Part shown: positions 35,551-47,405 of the stretch, piece after piece
Layout of the letters: every line of letters begins with the position of its first letter
How positions within the stretch are numbered: the stretch's first letter is position 1
From: an uncultured Candidatus Rokubacteria bacterium
GTDB taxonomy: Bacteria; Methylomirabilota; Methylomirabilia; Rokubacteriales; DASRDR01
Length of the DNA stretch: 64,000 nucleotides
Reading direction: 5' to 3'
NCBI GenBank assembly: GCA_963805625.1
Contig: CAWDVE010000010.1
Span: forward strand, 96,001-160,000
Position numbers and translations under genes: made by a program
The notes under the pieces: generated by a model
Told to the model about the DNA's origin: nothing
What the model saw: the letters and a program-made list of their open reading frames with translations, nothing else
Database searches by the model: none

Positions 35551-36186
35551 ATGAAGATTGTCGCTGCGCTCACCGATCCATCCCAGGCCTCCTCTGCACA
35601 GGATCTCGGGGCAGATATCATCGAGCTCCGGTTCGATCTGATGGAGGACGATCCTCTGACCTGTGTACAGATATGCAGGGATGCCTGTCCATTACCCATA
35701 ATCGGCACGATCCGGTCGGCGCAGGAAGGCGGAATGTTTTTCGGGGATGCAGCAGCATGGCTGGAAAAGATATGCCCGGTCGTCCCGCTGGTTGATTATA
35801 TCGATATAGAGCAGCGGTTTGCATCCTGTGCATCTCAGGTCCGCGAGAGCGGGAAAATGATCATCGCCTCGCACCATACCGGTATGATGCTGTCCCTGCC
35901 GGAACTGTTTGCCCTTGAGCGGGATCTCAGGGCGTATGGCGACATCGTAAAGATTATCGTTACACCCCGGAACAAAGGAGATATCCTTGAGCTGCTCGAG
36001 TTCACCCATGCGATAAAAAAACCTGTCTGCACCGGCGTGATGGGTGCACAGTTCAGGTACGCCCGGGCAATCCTGCCGCTCTTTGGATCCGGGCTTGTAT
36101 ACTGTCACACCGGCACCAGGACAGCTGAAGGCCAGTATTCGGTGCAGGAATTTGTCTCCCTTATGAAACTGCTGAAAAACGGGTAG
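35551..36186 (+). CDS. aroD: Type I 3-dehydroquinate dehydratase
   Basis: IELRFD, TIRSAQEGG, YIDIE, SHH, IVKI, MG...R and TAEGQ. Confidence 0.9.
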   Translation: MKIVAALTDPSQASSAQDLGADIIELRFDLMEDDPLTCVQICRDACPLPIIGTIRSAQEGGMFFGDAAAWLEKICPVVPLVDYIDIEQRFASCASQVRESGKMIIASHHTGMMLSLPELFALERDLRAYGDIVKIIVTPRNKGDILELLEFTHAIKKPVCTGVMGAQFRYARAILPLFGSGLVYCHTGTRTAEGQYSVQEFVSLMKLLKNG

Positions 36187-39214: not shown

Positions 39215-40201
39215 TCATCCATACTTGTCCTGTTCCAGTAAACAGTCCATCAATACCAGTGCCAGCATGGCCTCAGCGACCGGCAGGATACGCGGAACGA
39301 TGCAGGGATCGTGTCTCCCTCTCACGGAGATTCCAACCATGTGCCCGTGAATGTCCCGTGTCTGCTGGAGCTTTGTAATTGAAGGGGTCGGCTTGACGGC
39401 AATCCGGACAACAATATCCTGGCCGGTGGAGATGCCGCCAAGGATACCCCCGGCATGGTTGGACGAAAATCCGTCCTTTGTCATCTGGTCGTTGTTCTCG
39501 CTGCCGAACCTGCCTGCAACCGCAAACCCGTCACCGATCTCGACTCCCTTGACCGCACCTATACCCATCATGGCCCCGGCCAGCTGTGCATCCAGTTTTC
39601 CAAAGACCGGATCGCCAAGGCCGGCGGGACATCCCCGGGCAACAATCTCAGCGATACCTCCCACCGAATCTCCCGCCTCTTTTGCATTGAGGATTTCCTG
39701 CTCAATATCGGCAGGGGAGGTTTTACCGTGCACCGCTGAAATCCTGCTCCCGATGGTGATGCCCCGGGCTGAAAGATATTTCAGGGCAACTGCACCGGCA
39801 GCGACACGGCCGATGGTCTCGCGCCCGGAACTCCTTCCCCCGCCACGGTGATCCCGTATACCGTACTTTTCCTGGTACGTGAAATCCGCATGGCCCGGGC
39901 GGAATTTTTCACGGAACTCTTCATAATCCTTCGATTGCTGGTCCTCATTACGTACCATGAGTGCAATCGGGGCGCCGGTGGTTTTCCCTTCGAAAATCCC
40001 GGACAGGATCTCCACCCGGTCCTTCTCCTGCCGTGGTGAAGAGAGCGGGGATGTTCCCGGCCGCCGCCGATCGAGAAATGGCTGGATATCTGTCTCTGCC
40101 AGGTCCATGCCGGGCGGGCAGCCATCTATGATAACTCCGATAACGGGCCCATGGCTCTCACCAAAGGTGGTAATCCGGAAATTCCTGCCCAGTGAATTCA
40201 T
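39215..40201 (-). CDS. aroC: Chorismate synthase
   Basis: FGESHG, RPGHAD, RSSGRET, GDSVGG, KPTPSI and GRHDPC. Confidence 0.95.
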
Positions 40202-41587
40202 GCGATGAACTCCTTTACTTTTTCTGCCGGGACATCGATGCCGAAGAAGAGGTAAAACTGCTCCCGTGCCTGTTCGACAAACATCTCGGTTCCGCTGATT
40301 ATACGGCACCCCTTTGCCTGCGCTGCTTCAAGCAGCGGGGTCATCGGGGGTGTATAGACGAGGTCGAATACGGTGAGGTCTCTGTACAACTGGTCTTCCC
40401 GCAGGGGATTACGGGTGTCCGGCTGCATGCCGAGAGGGGTCGCGTTCACGACAAGATCCGGTTTTATACTGTCAAACTTATCCCAGGTCCCCCACGCACA
40501 GCCGAACCGTTCTGCGAGTTTCTTTGCGTTCTCCGGAGTCCGGTTCAGGATCGTCACGTCCATATCAAGATCTTTCATGGCATAGGCTGCCCCTGCCGCC
40601 ACACCACCCGCACCCAGGAGGACCGCCTTTGCACCTTTCATGGAGATGAGAGGTTTGCGGACCCCGAGCCAGTCCGTGTTGTAGCCGATGGCGGTTCCGC
40701 AGGCAAAGACGACCGTATTCACGGCCCCAATCTGCTGTGCCGCGTGCTCGTCAATCTCATCGAGGTACTGTATCACCTCATGTTTGAAGGGGATGGTTAC
40801 GGACAGTCCTTTGGCATCGATTGCACGGGCGACTTCCATGATCTCGTCCAGTTCAGGGTCCTCAAACCAGGTATAGTGGTAATTGAGGCGGTAATGATCA
40901 AAAAGTGCATTGAAGAGCCGGGGGCTCCTGCTGTGCGCACACGGGTATCCGGCAACTCCCATGATCCGCATCGTTGGATCTGTAGTTGCGCCGACAAGTA
41001 TGTCCTCAAGTTTTTTCAAGGGGGCCGGGGAAGCGCACGGTCCTGAAAAATTCAAGCGCCCTGTTCCGCTGAGCGGTGGTGGGAACTCCTTCGCGCAGCC
41101 GTACCAGGATAGTTTCTGCAGCCTGGACAGGCGAGGTCTCGCTGGTGTCCGTGCAGAAATCCGCGGAGGCGTAATAATTCCGCCTCCGGCGGTCCATCAT
41201 GGAAGCGATCTCTTCATGGAGGGGAAGGGTGGTGAGCGGGGGCCTGGGTTTTTTTATCAGCCGCTGTTCGATGGTATCGATGTCAGCTACCAGGAGCACG
41301 ATGGTACTTTCACGACGGAGATATTCCATGTTTTTTGGATCGCAGACAACACCTCCCCCCGTACTTACGATGGCATCTGCTGCGGGGAGCGTTGAGATTA
41401 CCTCACGCTCTGCACTGCGGAATCGTTCCTCCCCGTCATAATGGAAAATATCGGGTATGGAACGCCCGGTCCCTGACTCGATCAGATTATCGGTGTCAAT
41501 AAAAGGGACGTTCAGCCGCGATGACAGGATCCTGCCAATCGCGGTTTTCCCGGTCCCGCGAAAACCGGTCAATACAATTCTTCTCAT
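40198..41587 (-). CDS. aroE: Probable shikimate kinase-shikimate dehydrogenase fusion (frameshift near 41025)
   Basis: AroK part [19 protein letters not shown]; AroE part HSRSP, VTIPFK, GAVNT, NTD, GAGG, NATPLGM. The frames overlap at a CCCCGGCCCCC run. Confidence 0.85.
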
Positions 41588-42903
41588 TGTTGTATCCTCT
41601 CAAGTATATCCCAGAATCCCGGGAACGATTTATTCACGCACTCCGCATGGGTGATGGTAACCCCGCCGATTCCCATACCCAGCACCGCAAAACTCATCGC
41701 CGTGCGGTGGTCATTGGCCGGATCAATGGGAGCCCCGTGGAGTGGGGAGGGGCGGATGGTGATCCGGTCATGCCCGACCTCCACGTCCCCCCCGAGCGCA
41801 CGTAATCGTTCTGCAGGTACTCGTGATACGGTCGCTCTCCTTGAACTTTAAATGACTGATCCCGGTGATTGTCGAGGGTGTTGTTGCCATGGCAGCGACC
41901 ATGCAGAGCGTCTGGACGGTGTCCGGTGACGATGACATATCAACCGTGATCCCGCAGAGGTCTCCGGTCCTTTCTACCGTCACTGCATTGCCCGAACAGG
42001 TTACCGTACATCCCATAGACCTGAGTGCGTCAGGAAATCTCCGGTCACCCTGTACGGAATCCGGGTTCAGGTTTTTTACCGTTACCCTGCCGCCACAGAC
42101 CGCCGCAAGTGCGAAAAAATAGGAGGCTGACGAATAATCCCCTTCAACAGCATACGTCCTGCCCAGGTACTTCCGGTTGTTGTGTACAAAAAAGCGGGCA
42201 TATCCCTCTCGTTTGAAATCCGCTCCAAAAGCCTGCATCACCTCGAGGGTGATATCAAGATAGGACCGGGAGGATGGAGGGGAGGGGATGACAAGCTCAA
42301 CGTCTGTTTCTGCATACGGGGCAACAAGAAGGATCGAGGAGATGAACTGGCTGCTGATCGTGCCGTCAACAACAACGCTTCCTCCCTTAAGATCCCGCTC
42401 ACCCTGACCGGGGATATCCGTCATTTTTCACGTAATCGACAGTCGCCCGCTCACCCTGACCGGTGGATATCCGTCATTTTTCACGTAATCTGACTGATCC
42501 ACCGATACTCCGGAGTGCAGACACGAGCGGACCTATCGGGCGCTCCTGCATCCTTTCACTGCCGGTGAGGATTACCGGATTCCGGCAGAGAAGAGCAACG
42601 GACGCAAGAAGGCGAAGACTGGTCCCTGAGTTATCAAGGTCGAGAACGGTCGTTTCTTTTGTCGGAAACACGCCGTTGTTTCCCTGTATGATAATCCGGT
42701 CCGGTCCTTCCGTAATCGCCAGAACCCAGTGCTTTGAGGGCCTGTATCGTCAGCCGGGTATCTTCAGCATAGAGCGGATTGAGTATCGTCGTTGTACCGT
42801 TCCCGAGGGATCCGGTGAGGAGCGCCCGGTGCGTGTAGCTCTTGGACGGCGGTGCAGTGACCTCCACATCCACCGTCCCCTGGCGCCGGAGCGTGATGTT
42901 CAT
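41584..42903 (-). CDS. aroA: EPSP synthase (several frameshifts and a noisy ~50-bp duplication)
   Basis: PPSKSYTHR, NSGTSLR, ISSQFISS, GDYSSA, KESDR, DHRTAM and VNKSFPGFW spread over different frames. Confidence 0.88.
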
Positions 42904-43691
42904 GTCGGTATCCCGAGTTTCCGGTAGCAGCCCAGTTCCCTGACCTCAGTAATGGACTTAAGTTCGTCAAGCGCCTCGCGGGTATCTGCCGACCATGCAT
43001 AGTCAAGGAAGAACACATAATTTCCCATGCCCCGTTTGGACGGACGCGACTCAATCCGGGTAAGATTGATATTCCGCCGTGCAAAAACCCCGAGCAGGTC
43101 ATACAGGAGGCCGGCCCGATCCGTGCTTGGGTCGATGACGATACTGCACTTCTGTGCTTCGTCCGCACCGGGGTGCGTGCGGGAAACCAGGACGAACCGC
43201 GTTGTATTGGATGCATTATTCTCGACATTTGAGAGAATAACGGGGATTTTGTAGAGCGATGCCGCTGATACGGAGAGTATTGCCCCTGCGTTGGGAGTTT
43301 TCCGTGCTTCAAGAGCGCTGGAGGCATTACTGCTGGTATGGATGACCGGCACTCCCCATTCCCGTATCCGTTCACTGCACTGTTCGTGAGTCTGCGGGTG
43401 GGCATAGACCACCCTCATCCGTGAAAGAGGGACTCCGGATGCAAGATGGTGGTGGATGGGCATGAATATCTCCGCGGTAATAAACAGGGGGAACTTCAGC
43501 AACCCGTCGAGGGTCTCACCCACTCCCCCGGCTTCAGAGTTCTCGAGGGGCACCAGCCCGTCTCCTTCACCCGAGGCGACGGCAGCAAAGATATCATGGA
43601 TGGTCGATGCCAGCCGGATATCCGGCCATTGCATCCGTAGGGCAAGCTCGTGGGAGAAGGTCCCCTGCGGTCCCAGCGTGATAATGGTCAT
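42900..43691 (-). CDS. pheA: Prephenate dehydratase with ACT domain
   Basis: LGPQGTFS, PLENS, NTTRF and NLTRIESRP. Confidence 0.93.
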   Translation of the reverse strand: MTIITLGPQGTFSHELALRMQWPDIRLASTIHDIFAAVASGEGDGLVPLENSEAGGVGETLDGLLKFPLFITAEIFMPIHHHLASGVPLSRMRVVYAHPQTHEQCSERIREWGVPVIHTSSNASSALEARKTPNAGAILSVSAASLYKIPVILSNVENNASNTTRFVLVSRTHPGADEAQKCSIVIDPSTDRAGLLYDLLGVFARRNINLTRIESRPSKRGMGNYVFFLDYAWSADTREALDELKSITEVRELGCYRKLGIPT

Positions 43692-44512
43692 CGGTTCACC
43701 ATGTATTCGATCAGGGCATCGGTCGTTGTCATTCCCTCTGCGGCCCAGGCACCAAAATGCCTGCTGTCTGCAACAAAAAATTCCCGGAACAGTTCAGGCT
43801 GGTCTGATGCTACAATCCGGCTGAGATCTCCGGCAGCGGATGTGCAGGCAGAGAGGACTTCCGGTACATACGGGTTCAGCTGGAGAATATCCGCGTAGAG
43901 CGACGGGTCCTGCGATAGCAACCGCCCGACAAGGGCCAGTTCGATCTGGTAGACCGGGCTGGTAAATGCCCGGGTAGTTTCGATATCGATACCCAGGCGC
44001 CGGACTGAATCTGCCATGCAGAGGGTAACAAAGTGCGTGAGACCCTGGACAACGGCCATCATCCGGTCATGGGCTTCGGGAGTCGTGATGGTGCATTCTG
44101 CACCTTCTGCCCTGAGGATGGCAAGCAGCCCGCTGAGTGTGTCGTCACGGGCACGTGCCGGGCAGACGATGATGGTCTGGTGCCGGAGGGAACTGACGGT
44201 CGGCCCGAACATCGGGTGCAATCCTATGACCTGGGCCTTTGATCCCAGCATGGCTTCTACCGGACGCACCTTCAGCGAGGTCAGGTCGCACAGGAGCTGG
44301 TCCTCTGAGAGCAGGGGGGCGATCTCCTGTATGACCCGGACCGTGTCGCGGATGGGTACCGATACCATGACAAGATCGCATTCTCCGGCAAGTGCAGCCG
44401 GAGTGAGTGCCGTGGACCGCCCGGCCACCTCCACCTCGTATCCCGCCCGCTGTAAAATCCCGGCAAAGATCGCCCCCATCTTTCCGGTGCCGCCAATAAT
44501 TCCTGCCTTCAC
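43688..44512 (-). CDS. tyrA: Prephenate dehydrogenase
   Basis: GGTGKMG, DLTSLK, HPMFGP and HDRMMAVVQGLTH. Confidence 0.93.
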   Translation of the reverse strand: MKAGIIGGTGKMGAIFAGILQRAGYEVEVAGRSTALTPAALAGECDLVMVSVPIRDTVRVIQEIAPLLSEDQLLCDLTSLKVRPVEAMLGSKAQVIGLHPMFGPTVSSLRHQTIIVCPARARDDTLSGLLAILRAEGAECTITTPEAHDRMMAVVQGLTHFVTLCMADSVRRLGIDIETTRAFTSPVYQIELALVGRLLSQDPSLYADILQLNPYVPEVLSACTSAAGDLSRIVASDQPELFREFFVADSRHFGAWAAEGMTTTDALIEYMVNR

Positions 44513-44516
44513 GGTT

Positions 44517-45504
44517 TCACTTCTCAACAATGGTCTCTTTGACCGCCATGCCAAAATGCCTGCCGCCTGCAAGGGTGCATCCCATGATACGGTCCCCGAC
44601 AGCGAGGTTCACGACCGATATCGCATCTCCTCCGGGTGCAACCAGGCGGATGGTCTCGGCATTCTGGAGGATCAGGCTGACCTTTGCAGCCGGCTGCCTC
44701 CGCTTCCACCAGGAGCAGCGGACGCCGCTCGATCTTGGTCCTCCCCACAATGGCTGAATGTGCCTTTCCCGCTGCATCGGTGACAAGCACCTTTCCCCCA
44801 ATCGCAAGGTCGGAGAGATACGCCGTCTTTCCATCCGGCAGCAGGATATAGGCGTGGACGGCACCGGCATTTACCCGGAACGGGCGTGGAGCAACGTACG
44901 GGTTTTCCAGCGTCTCGGCATGGACAAGGAGCATGGCAGAGGATGTATTTCCCATCAGCATTCCTTCACCCTCCGGGAGCATCGAGCAGGTATCGACACA
45001 GACCCGGTCTCCCATGCCCACCGGCTGGATTTTTGTGACCGTGAAGGGGATGAGGCCAAGGTTCACGGCCGGTGATTTGACGAGGGATGCCACTTCCCTG
45101 ACCGTTGCCGGGTCGGTCGTCTTCAGCAGGATTCCGGCTGTACCCTTTTCGAGCACGTGGAGGGCAATCTCTGCTTCCTTTGCACTGGTAACCCGGGCGA
45201 TGATCCGGTCCGACTGGGCGACGAGGTTTTCCAGCGGGATGACCGTCCAGTCGCTGGTGGTCACGATGATGAATTTTTTATCACGGATACCGGCAGCAAG
45301 GTTTTCGCTTGCCTTGTCCGTGATCATGCATTCCGCGATATCGGGACCGATTTTCAGGTCACCGTCCGGAGCAATGGTGGTAATCCTCCCCAGTCGCCGG
45401 ACCGCTCCCGCATCATCGGTGACAATGGCATCCGCACCGCTCTCGATCGCCGTCGTTGCGATCTCCTTGTTCCACGGGCGGATATCGACCCAGAACTGTT
45501 TCAT
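44517..45504 (-). CDS. aroB': 3-dehydroquinate synthase II (frameshift near 44690)
   Basis: WTVIPLENL, GDRVCVDTC, RPFRVNAG and KIERRP; QNAETIRL...RHFG lies in another frame. Confidence 0.9.
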
Positions 45505-46286
45505 CCCGTGTGCCCCAGCGCCTGTTCCGGATCACTATTGTCATGGACGACTGCGCAGAGGGCTTTGACAAAAGACGTTGTGTCATCGCGCTGGAAGGAG
45601 TTCCTTCCCACGCAGACACCTGCCCCACCGACATTGACAGCGTCGCGGATGATCCTGAGGGACTCGAGGTCACCGGTCTTCTCGCCGCCGGCAATGAAGA
45701 CAGGTACCGAACAGGCCCTGACGATCTTCCCGAACGCCTCGGGATTGCCCGGGTAATTGGTCTTGATCATGTCCGCGCCCAGTTCTTCTGCCACCCGGAC
45801 CGCATGCCCGACCGACTGTGCTGAGAAGGAGTCGATCCCCTTGCCACGCGGGTAACACATGATAAGGAGCGGCATGCCCCAGCGGTTGCAGTCCCGTGCA
45901 ACATTGGCGCCGATCTCCAGCATCTTGGACTCGTTGGGTGAGCCGAGGTTGATGTGGATCGAGACCGCATCGGCGCCGAGCGCTATTGCCTCTTCCACGG
46001 TGCAGACCTGCACCTTGTCGTTCGGGTCCGGGTTGAGCGACGTGCTCCCCGAGAGGTGGATAAACAGGCCGATGTCGCGGCCGTGCTTCCGGTGCCCGCG
46101 CTTGACGAGCCCCTTGTGGAGCACGATCGCGTTTGCGCCCCCGTCACTCACGTCCGAGATGACTTTTGTCATGTCCAGCAGTCCTTCAATCTGTCCCATC
46201 GAGAACCCGTGGTCCATCGGTACGATGACCGACCGGTTCGTGTTCCGGTTCATTATCCGTTCGATCCGTATCTCTTTTCCAATCAT
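45501..46286 (-). CDS. aroA': 2-amino-3,7-dideoxy-D-threo-hept-6-ulosonate synthase paralogue (DhnA-type aldolase)
   Basis: VPMDHG, GADAVS, YPRG, ELGADMIKT and GRN. Confidence 0.85.
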   Translation of the reverse strand: MIGKEIRIERIMNRNTNRSVIVPMDHGFSMGQIEGLLDMTKVISDVSDGGANAIVLHKGLVKRGHRKHGRDIGLFIHLSGSTSLNPDPNDKVQVCTVEEAIALGADAVSIHINLGSPNESKMLEIGANVARDCNRWGMPLLIMCYPRGKGIDSFSAQSVGHAVRVAEELGADMIKTNYPGNPEAFGKIVRACSVPVFIAGGEKTGDLESLRIIRDAVNVGGAGVCVGRNSFQRDDTTSFVKALCAVVHDNSDPEQALGHTG

Positions 46287-46289
46287 GGT

Positions 46290-47080
46290 TCACACCTTCA
46301 GCAGTTCCATTGCCTCATCAACACCCTTCCCGTGATGCACGATACATGCCGCAGCCCTGACAAACCGGTCCGGCATCCGGTGCTGGAAGGCATTCCTGCC
46401 GATCGAGATCCCGGCTGCACCGCCGGCCATCGCACCTTCTATCAGCTCAAGGGTTGTGCGGTCATCGGTCTTTGAACCTCCGGCCACCACGACCGGTACC
46501 GGGCACCCCCGGGTCACCTCGCGGAAACTCTCCGGGTCACCGGTGTACACGGTCTTGACAATATCGGCGCCCAGTTCTGCTGCCACCCGTGCGGCGAGCT
46601 TGACCTGCTCGAGATCATTTGAGGTAGCGATGTTCTTCCCCCGGGGTACATCATCGCGAGGAGCGGCATGCCCCATTCCATGCATTCCACGGAAACGGCA
46701 CCAAGGTCTGCGAGCATCTTGGCTTCTGACTCGGCCCCGATGTTGACATGCATCGACACCCCATCGGCGCCCATCTTCAGGGCGTTTGTCACGGAATTGA
46801 CGAGCACCTTTTCGTTCGGGTCCGGTGCGAGCATCGTGCTTGCCGACAGGTGCAGGATTAACCCGATATCCCGTCCGCCCTGCCGATGTCCGTGGAGCGC
46901 CAGGCCCACATGGCCGATCACGGCATTTGCCCCGCCATCGGCGACAAGGTTGACGGTCTGCCCCATATCGATGAGGCCCGGGATCGGCCCGTTCGATACC
47001 CCGTGATCCATCGGGACGATGATGGTCTTCTTCGTATTACGATTCATGATCCGTTCCAGACGAATTTCCTTTCCTCTCAT
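46290..47080 (-). CDS. aroA': 2-amino-3,7-dideoxy-D-threo-hept-6-ulosonate synthase (frameshift near 46645)
   Basis: [21 protein letters not shown][RG], [12 protein letters not shown] and GRNAFQ. Confidence 0.87.
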
Positions 47081-47147
47081 AATAACAACAACAACCTCCC
47101 TCCGCATTCACACACGTTTTTATCAGTCGTGCAAACCAGAGGGCTTA

Positions 47148-47327
47148 TCAATACCAGTAATAAAACCGGTAATAAAACCGGAAATAAAAGCCAAAGAAGC
47201 TAAAAAAGCCGGAGACGCGTGACCATGCGGTCCCGACATTCAAAGACTGTTCAGAAACGATTTCACTGATGCAGCGGGAGAGCGAGCTATTAGAGATAAA
47301 GACATTCACGGGCGAAAAAACCCTCAT
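47148..47327 (-). CDS. Putative aromatic-amino-acid leader peptide (59 aa)
   Basis: MRVFSPVNVFISNSSLSRCISEIVSEQSLNVGTAWSRVSGFFSFFGFYFRFYYRFYYWY* followed by a second stop. 15 of the last 19 codons are Phe, Tyr or Trp. It ends 67 nt upstream of the aro operon. Confidence 0.75.
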   Translation of the reverse strand: MRVFSPVNVFISNSSLSRCISEIVSEQSLNVGTAWSRVSGFFSFFGFYFRFYYRFYYWY

Positions 47328-47376
47328 GAATGCGGTGGCACTCTTCCTGCATGGTTATTTTGTATGGGAGTATTGG

Positions 47377-47384
47377 TATTTAAG
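47377..47384 (-). promoter_or_regulatory. TATA box of the leader-aro operon transcript
   Basis: CTTAAATA on the minus strand, about 25 nt upstream of ATG 47352. Confidence 0.6.
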
Positions 47385-47394
47385 GGTGTGTGCT

Positions 47395-47405
47395 AATGCT
47401 TAGTC
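47395..47405. other. Junction between archaeal and high-GC bacterial sequence
   Basis: Abrupt change in GC content and codon usage; the bacterial ORF stops at the boundary. Confidence 0.9.

Follow-up and report, generated by a model that had tools for sequence, protein, structure and literature searches.

Upstream of an archaeal operon for aromatic amino acid biosynthesis lies a short reading frame crowded with Phe, Tyr and Trp codons, and this locus raises the question of whether that frame is translated, how ribosomes reach it and what they would control from there. The stretch of DNA analysed, hereafter the window, comprises 64,000 nucleotides of contig CAWDVE010000010.1 (assembly GCA_963805625.1, deposited as an uncultured Candidatus Rokubacteria bacterium), and all coordinates refer to the window unless stated otherwise. 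The frame was compared with its counterparts in Methanomicrobiales, and its relation to an overlapping upstream ORF, to similar elements on leuA and cimA-like genes and to the operon's ribosome-binding site was analysed.

The operon and its aromatic leader

The contig is chimeric. Methanoregula-like DNA of approximately 50% GC, which makes up the first 143 kb (contig positions 1–143400), is fused to DNA of approximately 70% GC, the value of the assembly, near position 47404 of the window (join 47403–47404). The join was located just upstream of the promoter because public contigs match the window up to approximately 47403 and then carry other sequence, with divergence at 47395–47403. The operon is encoded on the minus strand. 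Its first gene, aroA′ (ADH synthase, 46290–47080), has Methanoregula records as nearest relatives and is broken by a one-base gap near 46642, most likely an error of assembly; in public contigs an additional base is present at 46642/46643. The rest of the operon (aroA′, aroB′, tyrA, pheA, aroA, aroK/aroE and aroC; 39215–46286, minus strand) includes several genes with one-base indel breaks in this contig. Pfam and NCBIfam matches were consistent with the order given in the preliminary description, namely, aroA′-aroA′-aroB′-tyrA-pheA-aroA-aroK/aroE-aroC. A type I dehydroquinase gene lies outside the operon on the opposite strand (35551–36186, plus strand). Given the chimeric contig and the broken first aroA′, the aroA′ leader was judged from its relatives.

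Translation reproduced the minus-strand ORF of 59 codons plus stop reported previously (47148–47327, with its own ATG at 47325–47327), and its last 19 codons (47151–47207, minus strand) contain 8 Phe, 6 Tyr and 1 Trp, with TTT/TTC and TAT/TAC mixed. This U-rich tract was the top 19-codon window when all six frames of the contig's archaeal 143 kb were compared, with 15 aromatic residues against at most 9 in unrelated windows. The 59-codon ORF had no Pfam match. The earlier remark that a simple microsatellite would not need alternating synonymous codons is qualified by an in-frame 12-nt tandem repeat that makes up part of the tract (3.1 copies, 47153–47189) and indicates growth by slippage, though in frame. 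The double stop at the end of the ORF, also pointed out earlier, is not conserved, being present in just 4 of 172 leaders.

A second ORF, missed in the preliminary description, overlaps the first. This uORF1 (20 codons, 47290–47352, minus strand) is predicted to be leaderless, begins 31 nt behind the start of the TATA box in the window, contains a Phe-Phe and a Leu-Tyr pair and stops one codon past the Tyr. For comparison, 210 loci around the first aroA′ were gathered from Methanomicrobiales, an order of methanogenic archaea; together with the window they gave 211 rows, 184 of them distinct and 177 evaluable, after 27 duplicates, 6 too-short loci and L140 (the wrong paralogue) had been left out. 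Sets of 172 leaders also omit L007, L033, L040, L160 and L206. The genomes are related and Methanoregula-heavy, and the leader counts are therefore not independent.

All 177 evaluable leaders have an aromatic-rich frame end or a broken form of one. They fall into two types: 144 split-type leaders, in which the tract lies in the +1 frame of the uORF, and 33 in-frame leaders, 32 of them intact. In the split type, the uORF is 14–26 codons long and its stop, for which all three stop codons are used, lies 1–3 codons from the conserved Tyr in 133 of 144. A stop-free stretch of at least 25 codons is present in the +1 frame in 143 of 144 (range 16–80). An aromatic-rich end (at least 5 of the last 15 residues) is found in this frame in 139 of 144, never in frame 0 and once in frame +2, and Phe, Tyr and Trp make up 55% of the last 15 codons, against 8% in ordinary genes of the contig. 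Frame breaks occur in three split-type leaders (L007, L033 and L040). The remaining in-frame leader, L206, has two premature stops, reflecting decay or sequencing error.

The Phe/Tyr/Trp-rich frame upstream of aroA′ is conserved across Methanomicrobiales. That the tract frame stays open in 143 of 144 split-type leaders, over widely varying lengths, supports the earlier proposal of a conserved aromatic-codon leader in front of an archaeal aroA′ operon. The existence of a translated aromatic leader is regarded as very probable, and the leader, conserved across an order, is probably regulatory. A strict aroA′-type pattern matched 32 of 251 genomes of the phylum; 30 of these had been recorded from the order before, and the remaining two proved not to be leaders. 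Among 30 ADH-synthase loci of other Halobacteriota (best copy per genome), no aromatic tract was found in the 28 that were readable, the best value being 6 of 15.

Entry into the tract and the cassette on leuA and cimA-like genes

From two predicted shift sites in uORF1, the +1 frame runs without a stop into the tract. At site 1 (47314–47319, minus strand) the P-site codon is TTT and the A-site codon is Phe TTC; at site 2 (47296–47301, minus strand) a P-site CTT is followed by Tyr TAT. Across the 144 split-type leaders, the P codon of site 1 is TTT in 125 and CTT in 19, never ATT or GTT, and the next codon is TTC in 107 and TTT in 37; the count pattern demanded Phe/Leu followed by Phe/Pro. At site 2 the P codon is CTT in 78, TTT in 64 and CGT in 2, followed by TAT in 135 and TAC in 9. 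A re-pairing CUU or UUU in the P site, an open +1 frame and an early frame-0 stop, the combination known from prfB-type +1 sites, thus occurs at 286 of 288 sites. The P codon is restricted in this way despite a fourfold-degenerate position in the +1 frame. A and G never occur as the first base of YTT, which matches the need of the P-site tRNA to re-pair one base on, and the Phe and Tyr codons of the sites vary synonymously in frame 0 and not in +1. When recounted without the residue filter, such sites were present in 140 of 177 leaders, with Phe or Tyr after approximately 272 of 274 YTT sites; this recount left out 47 ATT matches from a degenerate third repeat, nearly all of them followed by His or Arg. 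These codon constraints make a +1 frameshift at the YTT sites quite probable, and Phe and Tyr are likely the amino acids sensed by the two-frame leader.

It had also been proposed that a single leader integrates Phe, Tyr and Trp. Trp integration is doubtful because Trp, although present within the last 15 codons in 118 of 172 leaders, is absent from 54 of the 172 tracts, and no Trp shift site was found in the leaders.

In-frame leaders appear to have arisen repeatedly. A quick tree of aroA′ (84 rows) required 6 changes for the in-frame state, 3 of them forced by well-supported branches, and L151 and its kin match L152, their split-type sister, except that one base is missing at site 1. The YTT-Phe pair is lost in in-frame leaders. 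These repeated fusions of the first ATG to the tract indicate that the tract peptide can be initiated at this ATG.

The same arrangement occurs on other genes of Methanomicrobiales (rows L239–L248, L276–L345 and L376–L405 for leuA and cimA-like genes). An NGY-YTT-CTT cassette, ending in a Leu codon, is located one base out of frame with the enzyme in 47 of 49 leuA genes, and an NGY-TTT-Ile cassette is likewise one base out of frame in 31 of 33 cimA-like genes. The leuA genes passed the isopropylmalate synthase cut-off; the cimA identity was inferred from a lower isopropylmalate-synthase score and an adjacent ilvB. The cassette was found in none of 5 genes of a third, homocitrate-synthase-like paralogue. 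Between the last in-frame stop and the conserved domain, no ATG, GTG or TTG is available in 23 of 49 leuA and 6 of 33 cimA-like genes, and an own-frame start codon is likewise missing in 16 of 30 homologues from other Halobacteriota. The cassette extends to genomes beyond Methanomicrobiales, high-GC ones among them. Outside the order, the P codon in cimA and leuA homologues is ATT or GTT at 7 of 24 sites, and since these codons re-pair poorly, the mechanism may involve more than simple slippage. Within 420 nt upstream of trpE (5 loci) and cysK (6 loci), no cassette was found. One cimA-like cassette (L277) has a Leu codon where its relatives have Ile. Approximately 200 nt upstream of a stand-alone ilvB (L269), a short uORF contains TTT followed by a Val codon, with the +1 frame open to near the ilvB start; this is possibly a Val version of the cassette, in one genome only. 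Slippage of the RNA polymerase was also considered and is unlikely, as CTT-TAT, CTT-CTT and TTT-ATT sites hold only 2–4 U.

We consider it moderately likely that Halobacteriota use a general sensor in which a uORF with NGY-YTT and a pathway-matched codon undergoes a hungry-codon +1 shift. On leuA and cimA-like genes the shift would lead directly into the enzyme; in front of aroA′ it would lead into a second, Phe/Tyr/Trp stalling tract, thereby forming a two-stage switch.

The main alternative route is that the tract ORF is translated from its own ATG or GTG at 47327 as a plain stalling leader, with uORF1 as a separate, overlapping modulator. Such a start codon is present in the +1 frame seven nt upstream of site 1 in all 144 split-type leaders, and a GTG occupies a like place in about two thirds of the cimA-like cassettes. 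It has, however, no evident Shine-Dalgarno sequence ahead of it, and in the short type it follows the first ATG by only 7 nt. The GTG is kept in 8 in-frame leaders although its frame cannot reach the tract there, and the homologous cassettes of 23 leuA and 6 cimA-like genes lack such a start. A ribosome stalled on uORF1 would, moreover, mask 47327 exactly when the operon is needed. We therefore regard initiation at 47327, assumed in the preliminary description, as unlikely; ribosomes most likely start at the ATG at 47352 and enter the tract through a +1 frameshift.

Probable output at the aroA′ ribosome-binding site

A hairpin is predicted to start 4 nt past the leader stop (47098–47143, minus strand) and to pair part of the aroA′ Shine-Dalgarno region. 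In the window its z-score was −2.59, and none of 200 shuffled sequences was as stable. Two Shine-Dalgarno-like GGAGG copies (47094–47103, minus strand) precede aroA′, the first within the hairpin and the second mostly outside it. The window itself is a weak case, with a Shine-Dalgarno pairing probability of 0.44 and its best GGAGGU mostly unpaired. GTT repeats (47081–47093), whose copy number varies among Methanoregula leaders, lie between the Shine-Dalgarno sequence and the aroA′ start; the spacing of 13 nt in the window is unusually long.

Across relatives, 113 split-type leaders have a clear partner for the Shine-Dalgarno sequence, and in 101 of them it maps between −12 and +15 relative to the leader stop. 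The pairing probability exceeded 0.5 in 73 of 125 split-type leaders, compared with 33 of 125 shuffled sequences, and was below 0.5 in the other 52, so that the hairpin signal is moderate. Several pair types occur at stem positions 4–7, and 55 of 86 arm pairs were 7/7, a count that leans towards pairing because the best partner was chosen. A consensus fold of 63 Methanoregula-type leaders retained only 4 pairs owing to poor alignment, and folding of the whole leader was unremarkable (z = −1.25). In an opening-energy model, the median cost fell by 2.4 kcal/mol in split-type leaders, using a fixed region that misses the Shine-Dalgarno sequence of the window and no shuffle control; for the window, the cost with a ribosome at the stop rose from 1.3 to 4.1 kcal/mol (−16 to +3, the same model without shuffle control), and no weight was placed on this model. 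The output of the leader is likely translational, and an effect of the hairpin on aroA′ translation is reasonably probable.

No intrinsic terminator with an antiterminator was found behind the leader: the sole minus-strand terminator-like match lay inside the tract. A sigma-70 promoter scan is ill-suited to archaea and was set aside. GUU repeats rather than a U run follow the post-stop hairpin, which is thus not a bacterial terminator.

Another possible output is transcriptional. With sensing unchanged from the frameshift reading, ribosomes in the tract would shield U-runs from aCPSF1/FttA, and the transcript would be cut in the leader when ribosomes are lacking. A run of at least four U is present in the last 45 nt of 125 of 141 split-type tracts, and U-ending codons are strongly preferred (TTT 409 versus TTC 180; TAT 418 versus TAC 86), the reverse of the preference in aroA′ genes (TTT/TTC 59/361; TAT/TAC 60/275); this bias fits either slow wobble codons or a U-rich signal for aCPSF1. 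Binding of aCPSF1 to terminator U-tracts is described for Methanococcus in the accessible text of PMC8716108, and control of this kind would cover the whole operon. The U-richness, however, results from Phe and Tyr codons anyway, and it is the Shine-Dalgarno region that a conserved hairpin with compensatory pairs overlaps. We consider transcript cutting as the output somewhat less likely even than initiation at 47327; the translational and transcriptional outputs are compatible and can coexist.

With moderate confidence, we propose from these sequence features a frameshift-gated translational attenuator, in which a hungry-codon +1 shift admits ribosomes to the tract and stalling there opens the hairpin over the aroA′ ribosome-binding site. 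Translation would begin with the ATG at 47352, the predicted 5′ end of the transcript. With Phe and Tyr plentiful, the ribosome would complete the 20-codon uORF and depart, so that the aroA′ ribosome-binding site would stay partly closed by the hairpin behind the tract; the U-rich leader, then bare of ribosomes, might in addition attract termination by aCPSF1. Under a shortage of Phe-tRNA or Tyr-tRNA, the ribosome would wait at TTT-TTC or CTT-TAT with an unoccupied A site, and its P-site tRNA would slip to pair one base further along. The shifted ribosome would translate the +1 frame into the tract and pause at the last aromatic codons, thereby melting the 5′ arm of the hairpin and freeing the aroA′ start. 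If this is true, archaea gain ribosome-mediated sensing of amino acids, starvation frameshifting becomes a regulatory device and a new means of sensing amino-acid shortage, and the missing start codons of leuA and cimA are explained.

The logic may differ in 11 in-frame leaders (L068, L130, L148, L181, L183, L188, L189, L198 and L112–L114; one named Methanospirillum), in which a conserved stem is formed from the last codons. By eye, the loop and 3′ side of this stem can pair with the Shine-Dalgarno sequence instead, with co-varying letters, and the arrangement is possibly an inverted three-segment switch.

An untranslated element, that is, a protein-binding site in DNA or RNA combined with a U-rich repeat and an incidental aromatic frame, would accord with the 18-nt motif that is repeated and strongly conserved at the DNA level and with the tandem repeat in the tract; it is very improbable, as a single frame is stop-free over dozens of lengths, in-frame fusions recur and the codon after YTT tracks the pathway (Phe/Tyr, Leu or Ile). 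Least credible of all is a T-box-like element, in which a hairpin loop displaying Phe codons would pair with uncharged tRNA: a weakly predicted hairpin (47302–47333, minus strand; z = −1.33 in the window, below −1.5 in only 50 of 144) does place the Phe-Phe site in its loop, leaving the site-1 codon unpaired in 135 of 144 leaders, and many tracts end in a UGGU-containing Trp-Tyr pair, yet Rfam gave no match near the gathering score (best E = 1.6), stem I is missing, 54 of 172 tracts lack Trp and the reading frames are conserved.

Known systems and the promoter region

The pheL and trpL leaders of Escherichia coli are transcription attenuators with cognate codons in front of aromatic biosynthesis operons. 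The aroA′ leader resembles them as a short, cognate-codon-rich leader conserved in orthologues, and, unlike them, lacks a terminator/antiterminator pair with a U tail. In the 32 intact in-frame leaders, the control codons share the frame of their own start, as in pheL and trpL; in the 144 split-type leaders, they would do so only via the ATG or GTG at 47327. The prfB gene, which encodes RF2, is regulated by an autoregulatory +1 frameshift with a stop codon in the A site and a Shine-Dalgarno sequence 3 nt upstream. In the aroA′ leader the A site holds Phe or Tyr, and a GTGA-like motif stops 4 nt short of the P codon and sits in a different register. The leader would thus act like an attenuator and yet belongs with neither pheL nor prfB; it probably represents a new form of attenuation mediated by the ribosome and likely gated by a frameshift.

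Elements of the proposed mechanism have precedents. The prfB site and the Ty1 site CUU-AGG-C (the latter as given in the available text of PMC5009743) combine, as proposed for the leader, a P-site CUU or UUU, a slow A-site codon, a +1 shift and an early frame-0 stop; here, by contrast, the A-site codon is a sense codon for an amino acid of the pathway, and the product in front of aroA′ is a leader, not an enzyme. That slow A-site codons favour +1 shifts is stated in the same 2016 review, whose accessible part describes a pheL frameshift as incidental and leaves open a productive natural use of hungry-codon frameshifting (PMC5009743). According to that text, an antibiotic (a ketolide) induces a frameshift in the ermCL leader ORF, by which ribosomes enter the spacer and an inhibitory structure is unfolded; the aroA′ leader, by contrast, is predicted to respond to a hungry Phe or Tyr codon and then to use a second sensing tract. 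The leaderless polycysteine sORF attenuators of mycobacteria, as far as described in the available portion of 10.1101/834739, combine a leaderless sORF, a cognate-codon tract and a stalled ribosome that blocks a structure hiding the next ribosome-binding site, which parallels the arrangement predicted for the aroA′ leader; the latter differs in being archaeal, in involving several amino acids and in having its tract out of frame with the start in most lineages.

Within archaea, slippage and a leucine dependence of translation were raised as a speculation for the haloarchaeal leuA2 by Pfeiffer and Dyall-Smith; in the accessible text, the start-codon anomaly of Haloferax leuA2 (HVO_1510) is treated as speculation on one gene, with no shift site, cimA or aroA′ counterpart or test (PMC8305020). 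TrpY and Tar also place archaeal aro and trp genes under the control of aromatic amino acids and, according to the available part of PMC6737238, do so as DNA-binding proteins rather than by ribosome sensing. For cellular genes of archaea, the accessible part of a 2021 review lists one reported programmed frameshift, of the −1 type in fucA1 (PMC8211752). A literature search, covering sources other than subscription papers, found no description of an aromatic two-frame leader, and the available portions of PMC11456600 and PMC7002104 contain nothing on an aromatic leader.

A TATA-like box is located at 47377–47383 (minus strand), and the distance from the start of the box to the uORF ATG is 29–34 nt in 134 of 144 split-type leaders. 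Just upstream of the box lies the remnant of a TGCTA-N5-TAGCA-type palindrome (47390–47403, minus strand), recognised from relatives and public contigs and truncated in the window by the chimeric join. The complete palindrome is present in 56 of 144 split-type leaders, where it ends 36–38 nt before the uORF ATG, and the reversed control gave none; it is likely a transcription-factor site. Small shares of four RNA-library runs yielded contigs only, some extending into the promoter, from which no start, level or drop could be read. Close to the TATA box of several aroA′ genes from other Halobacteriota (among L346–L375) lies a longer palindrome whose arms match those of TGCTA-N5-TAGCA.
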